Translations under genes and position numbers: made by a program | Part shown: positions 30,728-39,550 of the stretch, one piece after another | Layout: every line of letters begins with the position of its first letter | How positions within the stretch are numbered: the first letter of the stretch is position 1 | Sequence record: OZ035818.1 | Direction: 5' to 3' (one strand) | DNA: 39,754 nucleotides | Source: Kayfunavirus BDX03P1 | The notes under the pieces: model-generated | Database searches by the model: none | Told to the model about the DNA's origin: nothing | The model's input: the letters and a program-made list of their open reading frames with translations, nothing else

Positions 30728-33010
30728 ATGGCTAGTAATATTGAATCAGCTCTGGCTAATCGGACTATGGGTCGTGGCAGAGCGCCTGGTAAAACTATCG
30801 CCGTCAACTATCAAGCAGCCAGCGTTCAGGCTCCAACTGGTGACTCTGGTCTGGCGCGTGCGTTAACTAACTTCGTTGAGTCTGGGACTGGATTGTACAA
30901 GCAGTTCAAAGACGAGGAGAAGACCAGAGCCGACGAGCGGTCTAACGAGATTATCCGTAAGCTGACTCCTCAGCAGAGACGAGAGGCTATCCAGAACGGG
31001 ACACTGCTGTATCAGGACGACCCGTATGCTATGGAAGCACTTCGAGTCAAGACGGGTAGAAACGCTGCCTTTGCGGTAGACGATGAGATTAACGTTAAGA
31101 TTCAGAACGGTGAGTTCCGTACACGTCAGGACATGGAAGAGTATCGCCACCAGCGACTTCAGGACGCCGCTAAGTCCTATGCTGAAGAGGCAGGTATTAA
31201 CCCTACAGATGAGTTCTTCCAGCGCGGGTTCAACGATAACATCACAGACCGCAACATCGCTATCTATGGGTCTTTCAATAAGTATTTCAGCAAGCAGTCT
31301 GAAGAGACAGCAATGTTGAACACTCGTATTGAGATGAACTCGTTCCTTAACGATGGGGACCTGATGCGTTCGCCTGAGTCTGGAAAGACCTTCATGGCCT
31401 ACCTTCGGGATGGACTAACGACTGCTGCTATCCCTTCGGACCAGCGAGCACGAGAGGTCATTACCCAGACGGTCCGTGACGCAATCCAGAAATCAGGCGG
31501 CTCAAACTTCTTACAACAAGTACGAGGTGAGCGAATCACCCTTAACGGTGTGGATGCTACAGTCGAAGAGATTGTAGGACCTGATGTCTTCAACGCTGCT
31601 ATTGTTGAGGCACAAGGCACTGAGTACAAGCTGGTTGCTAAGTATCAGGAAGACTTGGCTTTAGGCGTTCAGTCTGCGATTCTTCAGGATGACCCGACCA
31701 TCGGTCTGGCCCAGATTCAGAAACTCAAGGAGCAGAACAACCTGCTTCAACCGGGTGAAGAACTCACGCCTCAGCGTCAGATGCTTATTAATGCCGAAGC
31801 CAGCTTGCTTGAAGCGGTAAAGCGTAAGTCTGCTGAACAGGCGAAGGAGAACACTAAGTTAATCCAGACTCAGAACAAGCAACTGGTCATTGACCAAGTG
31901 TATCAGCGACGTCTGGCTGGGGACAACGTGTCCACCAACTATGAGGACCTTCCAGTCTCAGATGCTACAGGCGAGTTCAAGCGTTCTGACATGAACAACT
32001 ATGCGTCTGCCAAGCTACAGCAGATTGACCAGATGGACATACCTGAGGCTGCTAAAGACGCTCAGAAGGTGGCATTGTTAAGAGCTGACACTAACAACGG
32101 TCCATTCCGTAATGCCTTCCAGACTCTAACTCAGGACGCTGCTGGCGAGTGGCAAGCTGCGGTCATCCGGGGACAGTACGACCCAGACAAGATGCAACGC
32201 TTCGAGTCTCTTCGTCGTGCCTACACTCAGGACCCTTCAAGTTTTGCAGCTCTGTATCCTGACCAAGCTCAGTTGTTCTCTACGTTCGACCAGATGGACA
32301 AGATGGGTCTGGACCCTCAGACGATGATTGAAGCTGATAAGCAAGCTGCAAGTCAAAGCCGTGAGATGCGCATGGAGTCAGACAAGGCGTGGCAGGAGTT
32401 GAAGAACGACTCCAAGAACACCCAGTTGTCTCGCCTCCCAACGTCTCTGGACTCAAGTGCTCGTAAGGTCTGGGACTCATGGTACTATCGTACAGGTAAC
32501 GCTGACGCTGCAACTCAGCAGACTCAACGCTGGCTGAATGAGAACACAGTAACGTTCCAGTCTGAAGGTTCTGACGGTAAGTCAATCGGCATGGTGTCCA
32601 AGCACCAGCTTATGGTTGGGGACAACCCAGAGTCGTGGCAGGTGGGTCGAGATATTATCGACACCGCTCGTCAGCAGCTCATTAAGGCCAACCCTTGGGT
32701 AGTGAACTCTCAGTTGTCCGTTGTTGAACAGAACGGCTCTATCTTCCTCCAAGACGCTACAGGGACTATTCGTATTCGCTACGATAAAGAACTTGTAGGT
32801 AAACTCTACCGCGAACAACAGCAGAAGGCACAAGATGCCGCATACGCTCAGGCAGAACGTGACGCTAACAAGCGAGCGCGTATCGTCGGGACTAAAGCTG
32901 CTGGTGACAAACGTCGAGCTGACCGAGAGGCCAACATCGAGAAGCGCGGTGGGATGTACAATGACGTCTCACTGGAGGGTATCGCAAACGTACTAATTGG
33001 TAAGGAGTAA
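30728..33010 (+). CDS. internal virion protein C (T7 gp15-like)
   Basis: 760 aa; ERSNEIIRKLTPQQRREAIQNGTLLYQDDPYAMEALRVKTGRNAA nearly identical to T7 gp15. Confidence 0.9.
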   Translation: MASNIESALANRTMGRGRAPGKTIAVNYQAASVQAPTGDSGLARALTNFVESGTGLYKQFKDEEKTRADERSNEIIRKLTPQQRREAIQNGTLLYQDDPYAMEALRVKTGRNAAFAVDDEINVKIQNGEFRTRQDMEEYRHQRLQDAAKSYAEEAGINPTDEFFQRGFNDNITDRNIAIYGSFNKYFSKQSEETAMLNTRIEMNSFLNDGDLMRSPESGKTFMAYLRDGLTTAAIPSDQRAREVITQTVRDAIQKSGGSNFLQQVRGERITLNGVDATVEEIVGPDVFNAAIVEAQGTEYKLVAKYQEDLALGVQSAILQDDPTIGLAQIQKLKEQNNLLQPGEELTPQRQMLINAEASLLEAVKRKSAEQAKENTKLIQTQNKQLVIDQVYQRRLAGDNVSTNYEDLPVSDATGEFKRSDMNNYASAKLQQIDQMDIPEAAKDAQKVALLRADTNNGPFRNAFQTLTQDAAGEWQAAVIRGQYDPDKMQRFESLRRAYTQDPSSFAALYPDQAQLFSTFDQMDKMGLDPQTMIEADKQAASQSREMRMESDKAWQELKNDSKNTQLSRLPTSLDSSARKVWDSWYYRTGNADAATQQTQRWLNENTVTFQSEGSDGKSIGMVSKHQLMVGDNPESWQVGRDIIDTARQQLIKANPWVVNSQLSVVEQNGSIFLQDATGTIRIRYDKELVGKLYREQQQKAQDAAYAQAERDANKRARIVGTKAAGDKRRADREANIEKRGGMYNDVSLEGIANVLIGKE

Positions 33011-36000
33011 CATAATGGCGACTCGTGGTATTCGCAATAACAATCCGGGTAACATCCGGGTAAGTAAGGACCAATGGGAAGGAATGACTGGAGATGATGG
33101 CGCATTCGTCACCTTCGATAGTCCAGAGTCTGGCGTCCGAGCTTTAGGTAAAAACCTGCTGTCCTACGGTCGCCAAGGTTATGACTCCATCGAGAAGATT
33201 ATCAACAGATGGGCACCTCCTAACGAGAACGACACTAAGGCTTATATTGACTCAGTTGTGGCTGCAACTGGTATTCCAGCTACCCAGAGTCTAGACCTCT
33301 CGAACCCGGACACCCTGTCTTCTCTGGCTCAAGCTATCAGCTTCCATGAGACAGGCTCCCGGTATGACCCTGAAGTCTATCAGAAGGGAGTCGAACGAGC
33401 ACTCAATGGCATTAGCCCAAAGACTCCACCAGTAAGCGCTAACGTATTTGACGCACTCACGGAAGGACTCAAGGCTAAACCTAAAGTAGCTCTGGGTGAG
33501 AACCTTCCGACCGCTGCTGGTCTGAACATTGAGGGTCAAGCACCTGAAGCTCCCAACGAATCGTTCGGTGAGATGTTCTATAAGGCTACTGGAGAGACCA
33601 TGCAGGAACGAGAGGACCGCTCTACGTGGTTCGGTTTCGGTGCGGCTACAGAAGCTGAAGTGAAGAACTCTATGATCGGCGTGGCTATACGAGCTGGTCA
33701 GACTGAGGACTCACTGGATGTCATTGGCGATGTGTTCAACCCAACCCGATGGAACAACCATAAGTGGTCTCGTGAGGAGCTGGACCAGATTCGTAACGCT
33801 GGGGTTCTGCCTCAGTATTACGGAGTCATTACTGGCGGTTCTCCTCAGAATCTGACAGAGCTGATTAACTTGGCGCTTGAGAACCAGAAGTTGGACCAAG
33901 AGAAGGCCAAGGCTGGGACTGGCGCTCAACTGGCGGCTGGTGTGATTGGTGCTGGTGTGGACCCTCTGACCTACGTTCCTATTGCTGGGCAGGTAGGTAA
34001 AGGTGGGAAGCTAATCAACAAGATGTTCACTGTGGCTGCTCAGTCTGGTGCTCTGGCTGGGACATCCGAGATTGCTCGAACCTCAGTTGCTGGTGGGGAC
34101 GCTCATGTGGCTGAGGCCATTATGGGCGGTGCTCTCTTCGGTGGTGGTATGACTGCTATAGCTGATGGACTAGGCAGAGCCTTAGGTCGCAACACTAACG
34201 AGTTCGCTGGTCCAGCTACACGTCTGGAAGCTCGCGAGACTGCACGTAATGTTGACGGTCAAGACCTGTCGCGTATGCCAATCCGTGAAGGAGAGGAGAC
34301 CTTTAGTCACCAAGGCGTTAAGTTCGCTGACGTGCCGAATGAGCCGGGAAGTGTACGATTAGAAGATGGTTCAATCTTGATTGGTGAGAACCCTCTGAAC
34401 CCTAAGACCCGTCAAGTCTTTGACGAAGTGATTGAGCCGGAACGTGCCGCTGCTGGTGTGAACCTTGGTGGACTTACCGAGATTGGCCTGAAGCTGCTTC
34501 GGTCTGAGAACCCTGAGATTCGTGGAGTAGCTGCTGACTTAGTACGTTCACCGACTGGTATGCAGTCTGGGGCCTCAGGTAAAATAGGGACAACTGCATC
34601 AGACGTGTTCGAGAGACTTCGTGCTGTGGACCATCGGTTCTACAACGACATCGACGATGCGGTTACTGAGGCCCTAAAGGACCCGTACTTCCAGACAGCA
34701 TTCTGGCGAGACTCTGGCGCATTCCGTCAGGACATCTACCAGCGTGTGTCTATGGCTATCGAAGATGGTAGCGGAAACCTGAAGGCTGAACTGACTCCGG
34801 GAGAACTGAAAGTCTATGACCTGCTGAAGAACCAGTTCGACGCCAAGCGTGAGATGATGGAGAACCCAGCTATGTTTGGTCGCCCAGACGCTCAGTCTAT
34901 CTTTCCGGGTAGCCGCTTCAAGGGAACATACGTCCCTCATGTGTATAGCAAACAGATGAAGGAGCTGTACATCAAGGAGCTTGGGAGTCCAGAGGCGTTG
35001 CAGGAGGCCATCAAGAAGTCATGGCTTACCAGCTATGCGTCTCGATCTGAAGTCAAGAAACGCGTGGACGAGGCACTCTTAGAGGCTGACCCTACGTTGA
35101 CTCCAGATGGACTTGCTGCTGCGGTCGATAAGTACGCCAACGATAAGGCTTACGGTATCTCTCACACCGAGCAGTTCGAACGTTCATCCGTAATGGAAGA
35201 GAACATCAACGGTCTGGTTGGTCTGGAGAACAACAGCTTCCTTGAGGCTCGTAACCTGTTCGATAGCGATATGTCAATCGTCCTACCTAACGGTCAGACA
35301 TTCAGTGTAAACAATCTGCGTGAGTGGGACATGGACAAGATTGTCCCGGCCTACAACCGTCGAGTTAATGGAGACATTGCTATCATGGCTGGTACAGGCA
35401 GAACCACGAAGGACATGAAGGACTTGGTTGAGACCATGATGAACAAGGCCGGGGATGACGGCAAGTTGAAAGGTGAGGTATCTACCTTACGTGACACCTT
35501 GAAGATTCTCACTGGTCGTGCTCGGCGTGATGGGGCTGATGATGCAGCCTTCGCTACAGTGATGCGTACAATGACAGACCTATCGTTCTTCGCTAAGAAT
35601 GCCTACATGGGTGTTCAGAACTTGACGGAGATTGGTGGTATGCTGGCTCGTGGCAACGTTCGTGCGCTTCTGCATGGAGTCCCGATGTTCCGTGACCTAG
35701 CCTTCCGTAACAAGAAGGTAGGAGCTTCAGAGATTAAGGACCTGCACAATGTTATCTTCGGTAAGGAACTGGATGACTCAATCCGTCCGTCTAAACAGGA
35801 TGTCATTGACCGTCTGCGGTCTTACAGTGACCTCGGTCGTGGTGCAGCTACAGCTCTGGGGACTGCCAAGTATTACACTGGTGAACTTGCAGTACGCTCT
35901 CCGTTCACTAAAGTCCTCAACGGTACGACCAACTACCTGTTAGATGCTGGACGTCAAGGCTTCCTGTCTGACATCGTGGAGCATAGTCTGACTGGTAGTA

Positions 36001-36902
36001 AGCGTAAGTTCGATGACCGCTGGCTTAAGACAGCTGGTATATCTGACGAGCAGTGGAAGGGCATTAAGTCCCTAATCCGTGAGTCAGTGACTCGTGGTCC
36101 AGACGGGAAGTATACCATCAAGGATAAGAAGGCGTTCAGTCAGGACCCAAGGTCTATGGACCTGTGGCGTATGGGTGACACCATCGCTGACGAAACGTTA
36201 CTCCGGCCCCACAAGCTGTCAAACATGGACGCCAAGGCTTATGGTCCTCTCGCTAAGACTGTCCTTCAGTTTAAGAACTTCGTCATCAAGTCCATCAATG
36301 GACGTACCATGCGAACCTTCTATAACGCCACGAAGAACAACCGAGCGATGGACGCTGCTCTGTCCACTGTGATCTCTATGGGTCTTGCTGGTATCTACTA
36401 CATGGCTCAGGCGCATGTCAAGGCTTACGCTATGCAGGATGGTCGAGACCGTGACTACCTCAAGCAAGCTCTGGACCCGACGATGATTGGATATGCAGCT
36501 CTATCACGTAGTTCACACCTTGGTGGACCACTTGGGGTAGCTAACATTCTTGGTGGTATCGCTGGGTATGAGGACACTAAGATGCTCCGTTCGTCTATCC
36601 TCCCTCGTTCACCTACAGAGAAGCCTGAACGTGCCATCGCATATGGTGCGGCTACAAGTGACCCTGTGATGAATGTCGTCGGTAACTTCTTGGAGCAGGT
36701 CCCGGCTTTCGGCTATGCTGCTAACGTTGGCGCTTCGGCTTACAACTTGGCTGGCTATCTCAATGCTGATACTCGTGTCAATGAGCGTGACTACATGACC
36801 GGGATGTATAACACGTTCCGTGAACTGGTCCCGAACGACCCGATTACCCAGAAGTTACTGCTTGGAACGTTTGAGGAGCAAGGTATCCACATCAAGGACT
36901 AA
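32997..36902 (+). CDS. internal virion protein D (T7 gp16-like), N-terminal domain divergent from T7
   Basis: 1301 aa; residues from about 200 onward colinear with T7 gp16 (PTRWN, VTGGSP, LEARETARN, VRSPTGMQSGASGK, KGTYVPHVY); N-terminal ~190 aa lacks the SLT-type E-S / GLMQ motifs. Confidence 0.9.
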   Translation: MVRSNIMATRGIRNNNPGNIRVSKDQWEGMTGDDGAFVTFDSPESGVRALGKNLLSYGRQGYDSIEKIINRWAPPNENDTKAYIDSVVAATGIPATQSLDLSNPDTLSSLAQAISFHETGSRYDPEVYQKGVERALNGISPKTPPVSANVFDALTEGLKAKPKVALGENLPTAAGLNIEGQAPEAPNESFGEMFYKATGETMQEREDRSTWFGFGAATEAEVKNSMIGVAIRAGQTEDSLDVIGDVFNPTRWNNHKWSREELDQIRNAGVLPQYYGVITGGSPQNLTELINLALENQKLDQEKAKAGTGAQLAAGVIGAGVDPLTYVPIAGQVGKGGKLINKMFTVAAQSGALAGTSEIARTSVAGGDAHVAEAIMGGALFGGGMTAIADGLGRALGRNTNEFAGPATRLEARETARNVDGQDLSRMPIREGEETFSHQGVKFADVPNEPGSVRLEDGSILIGENPLNPKTRQVFDEVIEPERAAAGVNLGGLTEIGLKLLRSENPEIRGVAADLVRSPTGMQSGASGKIGTTASDVFERLRAVDHRFYNDIDDAVTEALKDPYFQTAFWRDSGAFRQDIYQRVSMAIEDGSGNLKAELTPGELKVYDLLKNQFDAKREMMENPAMFGRPDAQSIFPGSRFKGTYVPHVYSKQMKELYIKELGSPEALQEAIKKSWLTSYASRSEVKKRVDEALLEADPTLTPDGLAAAVDKYANDKAYGISHTEQFERSSVMEENINGLVGLENNSFLEARNLFDSDMSIVLPNGQTFSVNNLREWDMDKIVPAYNRRVNGDIAIMAGTGRTTKDMKDLVETMMNKAGDDGKLKGEVSTLRDTLKILTGRARRDGADDAAFATVMRTMTDLSFFAKNAYMGVQNLTEIGGMLARGNVRALLHGVPMFRDLAFRNKKVGASEIKDLHNVIFGKELDDSIRPSKQDVIDRLRSYSDLGRGAATALGTAKYYTGELAVRSPFTKVLNGTTNYLLDAGRQGFLSDIVEHSLTGSKRKFDDRWLKTAGISDEQWKGIKSLIRESVTRGPDGKYTIKDKKAFSQDPRSMDLWRMGDTIADETLLRPHKLSNMDAKAYGPLAKTVLQFKNFVIKSINGRTMRTFYNATKNNRAMDAALSTVISMGLAGIYYMAQAHVKAYAMQDGRDRDYLKQALDPTMIGYAALSRSSHLGGPLGVANILGGIAGYEDTKMLRSSILPRSPTEKPERAIAYGAATSDPVMNVVGNFLEQVPAFGYAANVGASAYNLAGYLNADTRVNERDYMTGMYNTFRELVPNDPITQKLLLGTFEEQGIHIKD

Positions 36903-36920
36903 ACTATCACTATAGGAAAC
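36898..36920 (+). promoter_or_regulatory. phage RNAP promoter (phi17-like)
   Basis: ctaaactatcactataggaaacg; overlaps gp16 stop. Confidence 0.65.
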
Positions 36921-36967
36921 GGGACGCTACCATAGGTCCCATTTAATTCAAAACTTAAGGAGGCCAA

Positions 36968-39550
36968 ATGGCTAAGATTACGATTAATAACTACCCGTCA
37001 GGCCCCACTCAGTTCAAGATAGCGTTTGACTACTTGTCCCGAACCTTTGTGGTCGTAACCCTAGTCCGTACCAGCAATCAGGCCCTAAACAAGGTCCTGA
37101 CTCCAAATAAAGACTATCGGTTCCTGAACTCAACGACCATAGAGATATTGGTGTCCCAGACTGGATTTGACGTTGTTCAGATCCGCAGACAGACAGCAAC
37201 AGACTTAGTGGTTGCTTTTCGTGACGGCTCGGTCCTGACAGCAAGCGACCTGACTAACGCAGAGCTTCAGGCAGTCCACATCGCTGAAGAAGGTCGCGAC
37301 CAGACAGCAGACCTTGCTAAGGAATATGCTGACTCAGCCCTGACGTCTGCTAACCGAGCCAAGGCTTCTGAGAATGAGGCCGCACGTCTCGCTGAGAAGA
37401 TTCGAAACATGGGCGTAGGCGGTTACGTAACGGTTCGCCCTCCAATCGGTTCCTTCACCTTGGGCTACACAATCCAAGAGTGGAACGAGGTTCTCTGGAA
37501 CGATGATGACCTAAGTTATTACCGATGGGACGGGGCTGTTCCTAAGGTCGTTGCTCCTGGTTCGACTCCAGCAACCGCTGGTGGGGTCGGCGCTGGTAAG
37601 TGGGTTAATGTTGCCGACGCTAGTCTCCGTAGTGACCTCGGTCAGACCTCTGGTGCTGGGCGAATTGGAACAGCCACTGGTCAGACCCTAGCTGAGTCAC
37701 TTCACGCAGAAGACTCTCCGATGTCCTTCGGTACGGCTACAGCTAAGGCTAAGGCCAGATTAGCGACTCATGGTTGTCGTGTCCTTCTGGTTGGGGACTC
37801 ACTGAGTAGCTTCTACAACATAGACACCGCAAACGTAACGTCCCTCTTTGAGTCGTACCTCCGACGTAAGGTACACGAGACCAACCCGTCTGCCGAGTTT
37901 ATCAACAGGGCCATAGGCGGGATGCGATATTATGACTTAGGCCGTGATGAGCCGCCTGCACGCCTTGGCGATGGATACCCGTGGTTCACTGATAGATCAC
38001 GTCGCTGGATGTCTTATATCGAAGAGGCCAAGCCTGATGTAATCTTCATCGCGTTCGGCATGAACGATGGTCCGGGATGGGACGTAGGTAACTTCCAGCA
38101 GCCAGTGTTCTACAAGATGGTCGAAGAACTTCGGTCTATCTCTAGTGAACCTGAGCTGGTGTTCTGCACGAACATCTTACCGTCTACCGTTAACCCGGCT
38201 ACTGCCACAGAGGAACAACAGTCTGGACGCGACGCTATTGCTGGATGGACCCGTTCGTATGCTAAGTTTGCTGGGTATAGCTTCATAGACATCCATCGCC
38301 ACTTTAAGTCTCTGCGTGATGGGGTAGACCCCTGCGTATTTAGCTTCCGTCGCTCCACAATATCGACTCTGGTAGACCTCCCGTATACCTATACGTCGAA
38401 AGTGCCGTGCTACTCGGTACGACTCACTGTAGTGGACCCTGCTGTCCTTGTTACTGGCATCCAGATGTACCTATCGTCTTTAACGAACAACTTCGTCACC
38501 CTTTCATATGAAAGCGCATTAGGGAAGTGGCGTTTACAGCACTACACTGGGACATCTCTGGGGATGACGCTTAACGTGTTAGGAGATGGACCAGCGCCAG
38601 TGGTCGACCAAGAGATTCATATGTCCCTTAATGGTGATGTACTGACGGTGTTCATTGGGAAGAACACAAAGCCTATATTTTCTGGAAACATTATCCGTTT
38701 CGGCGGTAAGTTCACTCCGAGGATTGGAGGCACAGGCCAGATTAGGGTGGACATCATGGCTGGATTAGAGGTTCCGGTAGCTGCGTCTCTCACGGATTCC
38801 GACATCTACAGTACGAGTATAGACGGCGGTAACGGTCTTAATCACCCTACTGCTAAGGCCAGCTCCAGAATCTATCCACCGCCATTGGACTACTGGTTCA
38901 ACTCAGCAGGTCCAGAGCCCCTCAAGTTCGACATCGAGGCCGACTTCAGGTCTGGCACACTTGCGGTGTCCAACAAGTTTAGTCCAAAATCTGGAGGCGT
39001 ATACAACCTGTTCACCAAGCTGACCTTCATCAACGGTGCAGTAGAATATGTGCGGGACTCTGAGAACGTGGTTATAGGGGCGCGCTTCGGGTCAAACAAC
39101 CGGGCGTATATCGACATGGCAGACTACATGGAACCGGGGCTGTCCTTCAAGCGTCTGACTGTAGAGATTGAGATGTATGCACCGTCTGGAGCTGCGCACG
39201 TCTTATCCCTCGGTGAGGCCACTACAGGGGACCGCTCTATGTATCAGGTGACGGAAGGTCTACAGCTTCGAGCCACTACTTCCAGCTCAGGTCAAGCAAC
39301 GGACTTAACGTCCTCAGCGTCTTTCCATATGACTGCTGGTCGAGACTACACGTTAATCCATGATGTGGACTTAAAGGCCAAGGTTGCAGCTCTCCGTACT
39401 GTGGATGGCTTCAAGATTGGGAACACCAACACCCACGCGATTACCAGCCTATTATCTGAGCTCCTGTCTAAGATTAAGTTCGGGTATTCATCTCCTAGTA
39501 CATTTGGGGGAGATGTGGTGATTAAGCGTGTGCGGATTGCGCTTAGGTAA
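36968..39550 (+). CDS. tail fibre / tailspike with T7 gp17-like N-terminal anchor and SGNH-hydrolase (esterase) domain
   Basis: 860 aa; N-terminal ~150 aa resembles T7 gp17 (FDYLSRTFVVVTL, DYRF, RDGSVLTASDL, HIAEEGRD); central GDSL block LLVGDSLSS, conserved Gly AIGGMRYY, GxND block IFIAFGMNDG, DIHRH near end of domain. Confidence 0.9.
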   Translation: MAKITINNYPSGPTQFKIAFDYLSRTFVVVTLVRTSNQALNKVLTPNKDYRFLNSTTIEILVSQTGFDVVQIRRQTATDLVVAFRDGSVLTASDLTNAELQAVHIAEEGRDQTADLAKEYADSALTSANRAKASENEAARLAEKIRNMGVGGYVTVRPPIGSFTLGYTIQEWNEVLWNDDDLSYYRWDGAVPKVVAPGSTPATAGGVGAGKWVNVADASLRSDLGQTSGAGRIGTATGQTLAESLHAEDSPMSFGTATAKAKARLATHGCRVLLVGDSLSSFYNIDTANVTSLFESYLRRKVHETNPSAEFINRAIGGMRYYDLGRDEPPARLGDGYPWFTDRSRRWMSYIEEAKPDVIFIAFGMNDGPGWDVGNFQQPVFYKMVEELRSISSEPELVFCTNILPSTVNPATATEEQQSGRDAIAGWTRSYAKFAGYSFIDIHRHFKSLRDGVDPCVFSFRRSTISTLVDLPYTYTSKVPCYSVRLTVVDPAVLVTGIQMYLSSLTNNFVTLSYESALGKWRLQHYTGTSLGMTLNVLGDGPAPVVDQEIHMSLNGDVLTVFIGKNTKPIFSGNIIRFGGKFTPRIGGTGQIRVDIMAGLEVPVAASLTDSDIYSTSIDGGNGLNHPTAKASSRIYPPPLDYWFNSAGPEPLKFDIEADFRSGTLAVSNKFSPKSGGVYNLFTKLTFINGAVEYVRDSENVVIGARFGSNNRAYIDMADYMEPGLSFKRLTVEIEMYAPSGAAHVLSLGEATTGDRSMYQVTEGLQLRATTSSSGQATDLTSSASFHMTAGRDYTLIHDVDLKAKVAALRTVDGFKIGNTNTHAITSLLSELLSKIKFGYSSPSTFGGDVVIKRVRIALR

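Follow-up and report, generated by a model that had tools for sequence, protein, structure and literature searches.

Does gene 17 of this phage encode a tailspike with an enzymatic distal part, and which residues would then form its active site? The stretch of DNA analysed here (the window: 39,754 nucleotides of Kayfunavirus BDX03P1, record OZ035818.1) contains a reading frame of 860 amino acids, for which the original prediction had proposed a deacetylating tailspike with an acetylated polysaccharide as receptor. The computational evidence (Pfam matches, fold, invariant residues and homology to Possum gp66) sustained the core of this proposal, while the catalytic His, the domain boundaries and the description of the C-terminal region had to be revised.

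The gene 17 locus

The locus contains the following elements:
36904..36916, + strand: promoter-like motif of the phage RNA polymerase, CTATCACTATAGG, directly 5' of gene 17 (read from the sequence)
36956..36963, + strand: ribosome-binding site TAAGGAGG (AAGGAGG), about 5 nt 5' of the ATG (read from the sequence)
36968..39550, + strand: gene 17 tailspike reading frame, 860 amino acids and stop (open reading frame list)

The tail-fibre frame proposed earlier at 36968-39550 on the plus strand is confirmed by the open reading frame list and represents a genuine gene 17, here of a T7-like coliphage belonging to Kayfunavirus. It stands between gp16 (32997-36902), annotated in relatives as "internal virion protein with endolysin domain", and a class II holin (from 39593), in the same order as in CLB_P1, and the backbone shares about 95% DNA identity with EcoDS1, CLB_P1 and LM33_P1. 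Both the PF03906 domain and the gp16/holin flanks of a T7 gp17-type protein are present. The promoter motif occurs 12 times in the window, always on the plus strand, against a chance expectation of 0.83. In gene 17 and after it the search for tRNA genes found none, and that for sigma-70 promoters and terminators gave nothing convincing; the minus-strand frames within the gene, all of 82 amino acids or less, were judged spurious.

N-terminal adapter and mosaic origin of the distal part

Three features describe the proximal part of the protein and the boundary of DNA homology:
37007..37357, + strand: T7 gp17-type tail-attachment domain, residues 14-130 (PF03906, E 3e-21)
37445..37618, + strand: Tail_spike_N (TSP1/gp66-type) module, residues 160-217 (PF18668, E 5e-20)
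37333..39545, + strand: exchanged receptor-binding cassette, without DNA homology to CLB_P1 (blastn)

The T7 gp17 attachment domain expected at the N-terminus was thus found, and it is followed by a Tail_spike_N module that the earlier description did not contain. These N-terminal modules match T7 gp17 (PDB 7boz) as well as the Kayfunavirus-type spikes 9vvr and 9lna (E 4e-85 and 8e-73 over residues 1-230/266). Since the matches obtained by PDB sequence searches, either with the single protein or with a profile, were confined to the N-terminal modules, structural comparison was required for the enzymatic part. Other solved fibres with GDS motifs appeared in the PDB profile search (9D84, 9D80, 9D81), and a literature search on these three codes found no relevant paper.

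The adapter of gene 17 is only about 65% identical to Kayfunavirus adapters, compared with about 95% DNA identity for the rest of the genome. Homology to CLB_P1, the closest Kayfunavirus examined, ends in blastn at 37332 and restarts at 39546, and an N4-like contig (L003) matches positions 37526-39548 at 86.9% DNA identity, so that the cassette common to the two begins at nucleotide 37526, around residue 187. Judged from these alignments, the recombination junction lies inside the Tail_spike_N module, and the presence of the cassette in a T7-like and an N4-like phage is a clear example of a recent exchange of receptor-binding modules between unrelated podoviruses. Megablast of gene 17 against GenBank phages gave no match, therefore the gene was placed through protein and backbone searches; the assemblies GCA_013181095.1 and GCA_033696785.1 carry a 99%-identical phage contig.

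Fold and domain layout of the distal part

The remainder of the protein is divided as follows:
37769..38323, + strand: N-terminal four-fifths of the SGNH domain, residues 268-452, with β1-β5 and blocks I-III
37799-37801, + strand: Ser278, block I
37916-37921, + strand: Gly317/318, block II
38063-38065, + strand: Asn366, block III
38324..38782, + strand: putative β-sandwich inserted into the SGNH fold, residues 453-605, 153 amino acids (all-β in the model, splice test)
38783..38917, + strand: C-terminal segment of the SGNH domain, residues 606-650, block V GGNGLNHP (invariant N625/H626, splice test)
38843-38845, + strand: His626, predicted catalytic residue in block V GGNGLNHP, aligned with GGNGINHP of Possum gp66
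38918..39547, + strand: C-terminal ConA-like (laminin-G/neurotoxin Hc-N type) lectin domain, residues 651-860

The SGNH/GDSL domain claimed earlier was clearly recovered by PF13472 (E 7e-14) and PF00657 (E 1e-7), both above the Pfam gathering scores; an NCBIfam acetylxylan-esterase match, scoring 15.9 bits where the cut-off is 700, was set aside. Structure prediction, which had been suggested as a check, also found the SGNH fold: the AF2 model (mean pLDDT 87.5) contains a three-layer α/β/α fold with five parallel strands in the canonical β1-α-β2-α-β3-α-β4-α-β5 order. The limits proposed for this domain, about 250-470, must nevertheless be replaced, as a 153-residue insertion divides it and its C-terminal segment runs to residue 650. 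Likewise, the single additional C-terminal domain of about 390 amino acids is resolved into the insert (453-605), the SGNH segment (606-650) and the lectin domain (651-860).

Homologues and proposed function

The nearest characterised homologue is gp66 of Pectobacterium phage Possum, whose residues 417-810 align collinearly with residues 264-640 of the gene 17 product (BLASTP E 4e-29, 26% identity), with the motifs GDS, FGMND and GGNGINHP in common. The split SGNH layout is widespread, at least 275 representative protein clusters matching at E <= 1e-10, most of them covering positions 5-374 of the query unbroken. Tail adapters of several phage types carry the module (T7-type, Phapecoctavirus, the N4-like contig and also a lambdoid prophage, in which it adjoins TipJ), and it is listed by PHROGs as "unknown function" (phrog_17220). 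In complete E. coli genomes only distant prophage homologues of the module occur, and at 66-67% nucleotide identity these are too diverged for their specificity (host serotype) to be transferred to our protein.

Directly supported are the domain architecture and the fold, the conservation of catalytic residues, the mosaic origin and the homology to an enzyme whose deacetylase activity is proven. Considering these together, we think it probable that gene 17 encodes a Kayfunavirus tailspike composed of a gp17 adapter, a Tail_spike_N connector and a split-SGNH carbohydrate O-acetyl-esterase acting on surface polysaccharide; judged from the sequence, the esterase domain most likely strips acetyl groups from the sugar coat of the host. 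From this architecture we infer a trimeric state, enzyme activity, a substrate and a role for the lectin domains, in the following manner. Residues 1-130 would dock the presumed trimer onto the tail, residues 160-217 would serve as connector and recombination joint, and the distal 590 residues would form the receptor-recognising carbohydrate O-acetyl-esterase. The spike would bind a surface polysaccharide, either O-antigen or capsule, that bears O-acetyl groups, and would take these off while leaving the backbone uncut. This deacetylation would allow the virion to move processively to the outer membrane, a mechanism already suggested for G7C.

The substrate could also be another one, such as colanic acid, ECA or a conserved "key" glycan, the acyl chains of lipid A or of a lipoprotein (the enzyme being then a lipase), or O-acetyl groups of peptidoglycan during penetration, and we consider this unlikely. 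Peptidoglycan degradation is already supplied by gp16, which provides this function in T7-like phages, and in many phage types the module occupies the distal, receptor-binding end of the fibre. In mid-range homologues the catalytic halves are 59-75% conserved, compared with 40-50% in the case of the insert and of the C-terminal domain. Such faster divergence is the pattern expected if both of these determine specificity, and lectin domains that diversify quickly are typically found where the polysaccharide recognised varies from strain to strain, not where the target is conserved. Furthermore, the recombinant form of the nearest characterised homologue, Possum gp66, was shown by NMR to O-deacetylate the O-polysaccharide of its host (PMC9569702).

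Proposed catalytic residues

The placement of blocks I-III given in the original prediction (GDS 276-278, GG 317-318, GMND 364-367) was found to be correct. Block I is GDSLS at 276-280, with Gly276, Asp277 and Ser278 invariant in 40 homologues; block II extends as N313-RAIGG-318 and block III as G364-MND-367. In the proposed mechanism Ser278 of the GDS motif would act as nucleophile and His626 of the NHP motif as base, and the oxyanion hole would be formed by the backbone NH of Ser278 and Gly317/318 together with the side chain of Asn366. The canonical Asp of a DxxH motif is absent, since Gly623 stands at the His-3 position, which points to a Ser-His dyad or a non-canonical acid. Among the 40 sequences this position is Gly in 32, Asp in five and Asn, Lys or Thr in three.

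The missing triad Asp could also mean that the module is a dead, lectin-like binding domain and that the spike binds polysaccharide without modifying it, particularly as two lectin-type β-sandwiches could bind unaided. We regard this as quite improbable, because Ser278, Asn366, Asn625 and His626 do not vary among the 40 homologues, whose identity falls as low as 21%, and only one of the 40 lacks Gly318, a conservation not expected of a dead enzyme. Additionally, Possum gp66 deacetylates its substrate (PMC9569702) although it, too, has Gly at His-3, and Ser-His dyads as well as water-mediated triads are active in the CE2 and CE20 families (PMC9487903, PMC12313940).

The assignment of His626 as the block V residue differs from the original prediction, in which the catalytic Asp/His pair had been sought in DIHRH (441-445). 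Asp441 is invariant there, and FID441 is presumably the common "vDl" motif that closes β5 in the SGNH family. His443 is kept among the closer homologues, but it is replaced by Asn in 12 of the 40, among them the experimentally active Possum gp66 (DLNRYF), His445 is peculiar to the gene 17 product, every other homologue of the set having Arg, and the spacing gives DxH or DxxxH instead of DxxH. On the alignment the catalytic block V His is His626, downstream of the inserted sandwich. On the intact protein the PF13472 match ends at residue 448, around profile position 154 of 178, and thus block V is missing from it; when residues 453-605 were removed, the match extended from position 154 to 174 of 178 (57.3 to 60.2 bits), and that of PF00657 from 179 to 203 of 208 (36.3 to 41.5 bits). 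An undivided SGNH domain (residues 250-470, about 220 in all) in which DIHRH supplies the Asp/His block, followed by a single C-terminal domain of other origin that takes up about 390 residues, a reading for which the end of the intact-protein match, the invariant Asp441 and the conserved His443 of closer homologues might be cited, is therefore very improbable in view of the substitutions and spacing in DIHRH, the invariance of His626 and the profile position reached only after the removal of the insert.

Inserted sandwich and C-terminal lectin domain

In the divided SGNH domain the β-sandwich of 153 amino acids would interrupt the fold between the post-β5 helix and the block-V loop, and it is probably an ancillary substrate-binding domain. 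When the part from the insert to the C-terminus was compared by Foldseek, 410-460 columns were aligned with tandem LG/galectin pairs (E 1e-10, low TM-scores); the predicted sandwich fold of the insert is read solely from these low-TM alignments. The C-terminal domain has a ConA-like lectin fold with relatives among carbohydrate-binding modules: a two-sheet jelly-roll sandwich resembling LG/LNS, neurotoxin Hc-N and CBM40 domains. Pfam gave no match on either the isolated insert or the isolated C-terminal domain, and an internal duplication was rejected, because hhalign showed no relation between the two. Binding of the polysaccharide, and with it the specificity of the spike, is most likely the task of the inserted sandwich and the terminal lectin.

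A further suggestion can be offered only tentatively, and we consider it rather doubtful: the split SGNH, present in hundreds of tail-fibre clusters, might represent a distinct class of phage polysaccharide esterases, marked by the sandwich between Ser278 and His626, the invariant Asn-His-Pro and the lack of Asp at the usual triad position, with its own active site (a dyad, or a recruited acid such as the invariant Asp441) and with the sandwich as specificity cleft. Among T7-like coliphages, this one might be the first to have a host range governed by the O-acetylation state of a surface glycan.

Provided that the spike is active, the O-acetylation state of the polysaccharide, and not just its type, would set the host range of the phage, and a host could become resistant simply by losing an acetyltransferase or by its phase variation, which bears on Kayfunavirus phage-therapy cocktails and on genome-based prediction of host range. 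The corrected anatomy (Ser278/His626, inserted sandwich, terminal lectin) can guide the choice of mutants and construct boundaries, and annotation is gained for phrog_17220 and for hundreds of tail proteins described as "hypothetical" or generic "GDSL esterase".

Comparison with known systems

Possum gp66, encoded by an N4-like phage (Cbunavirus), has the same split SGNH domain, the same Gly at His-3 and also a Tail_spike_N-like segment upstream. Unlike the gene 17 product, it carries an N4-type N-terminal adapter and belongs to a phage of another host genus. The C-terminal parts differ as well: our protein ends in a ConA-like lectin of 210 amino acids, whereas residues 825-925 of gp66 resemble a Listeria phage receptor-binding protein (PMC9569702).

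In G7C gp63.1 (PDB 4QNL) the SGNH domain is contiguous and the triad is canonical (S276, N382, D470-x-x-H473), with about 197 amino acids from Ser to His, in contrast to 348 amino acids and no Asp at His-3 in the gene 17 product; moreover, gp63.1 is attached to the tail via gp66 and not directly. Membership of our protein in its sequence family was rejected, as the family-profile hhalign matched Tail_spike_N only.

The same design of gp17 adapter and SGNH deacetylase, likewise encoded between gp16 and the holin, is found in the Studiervirinae Pectobacterium phages Q19, PP47, PP81 and PP99. Horizontal acquisition of their SGNH part has been noted (PMC7693777) and deacetylation by PP99 has been cited (PMC10743462). 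These spikes, described as G7C-like (HHpred 99.85% to gp63.1), differ in host and genus from ours, and they are absent from the tblastn matches to the gene 17 module (E <= 1e-5), thus they probably represent another SGNH lineage.

An SGNH domain split by a β-sandwich, without a direct Asp and still active, has been described in CE20 (PMC12313940), Ape1 and CE2 (PMC9487903). CE20 (Fl8CE20_II) and Neisseria Ape1, with their inserted β-sandwich, are analogous rather than orthologous to our protein: CE20 is of the SASA/GQSNM type with DxH, while the gene 17 product is of the GDSL_2 type, and both are bacterial enzymes, not virion proteins, likened here by layout and not by coordinates.

The gp17 spikes of Kayfunavirus (K1F endosialidase, LM33_P1, CLB_P1; 9vvr, 9lna) share position, adapter, Tail_spike_N and the logic of modular exchange with gene 17, but carry no SGNH esterase in the distal part. 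The tailspikes of K1F, LM33_P1 and CLB_P1 are polysaccharide-specific. The contrast with the rough-LPS fibre of T7 is consequently less striking than had been implied, and relative to these relatives only the enzyme class differs. Esterase tailspikes, including fusions of a T7 adapter with an SGNH domain, were known before; the gene 17 product is a new carrier of a known phage strategy.

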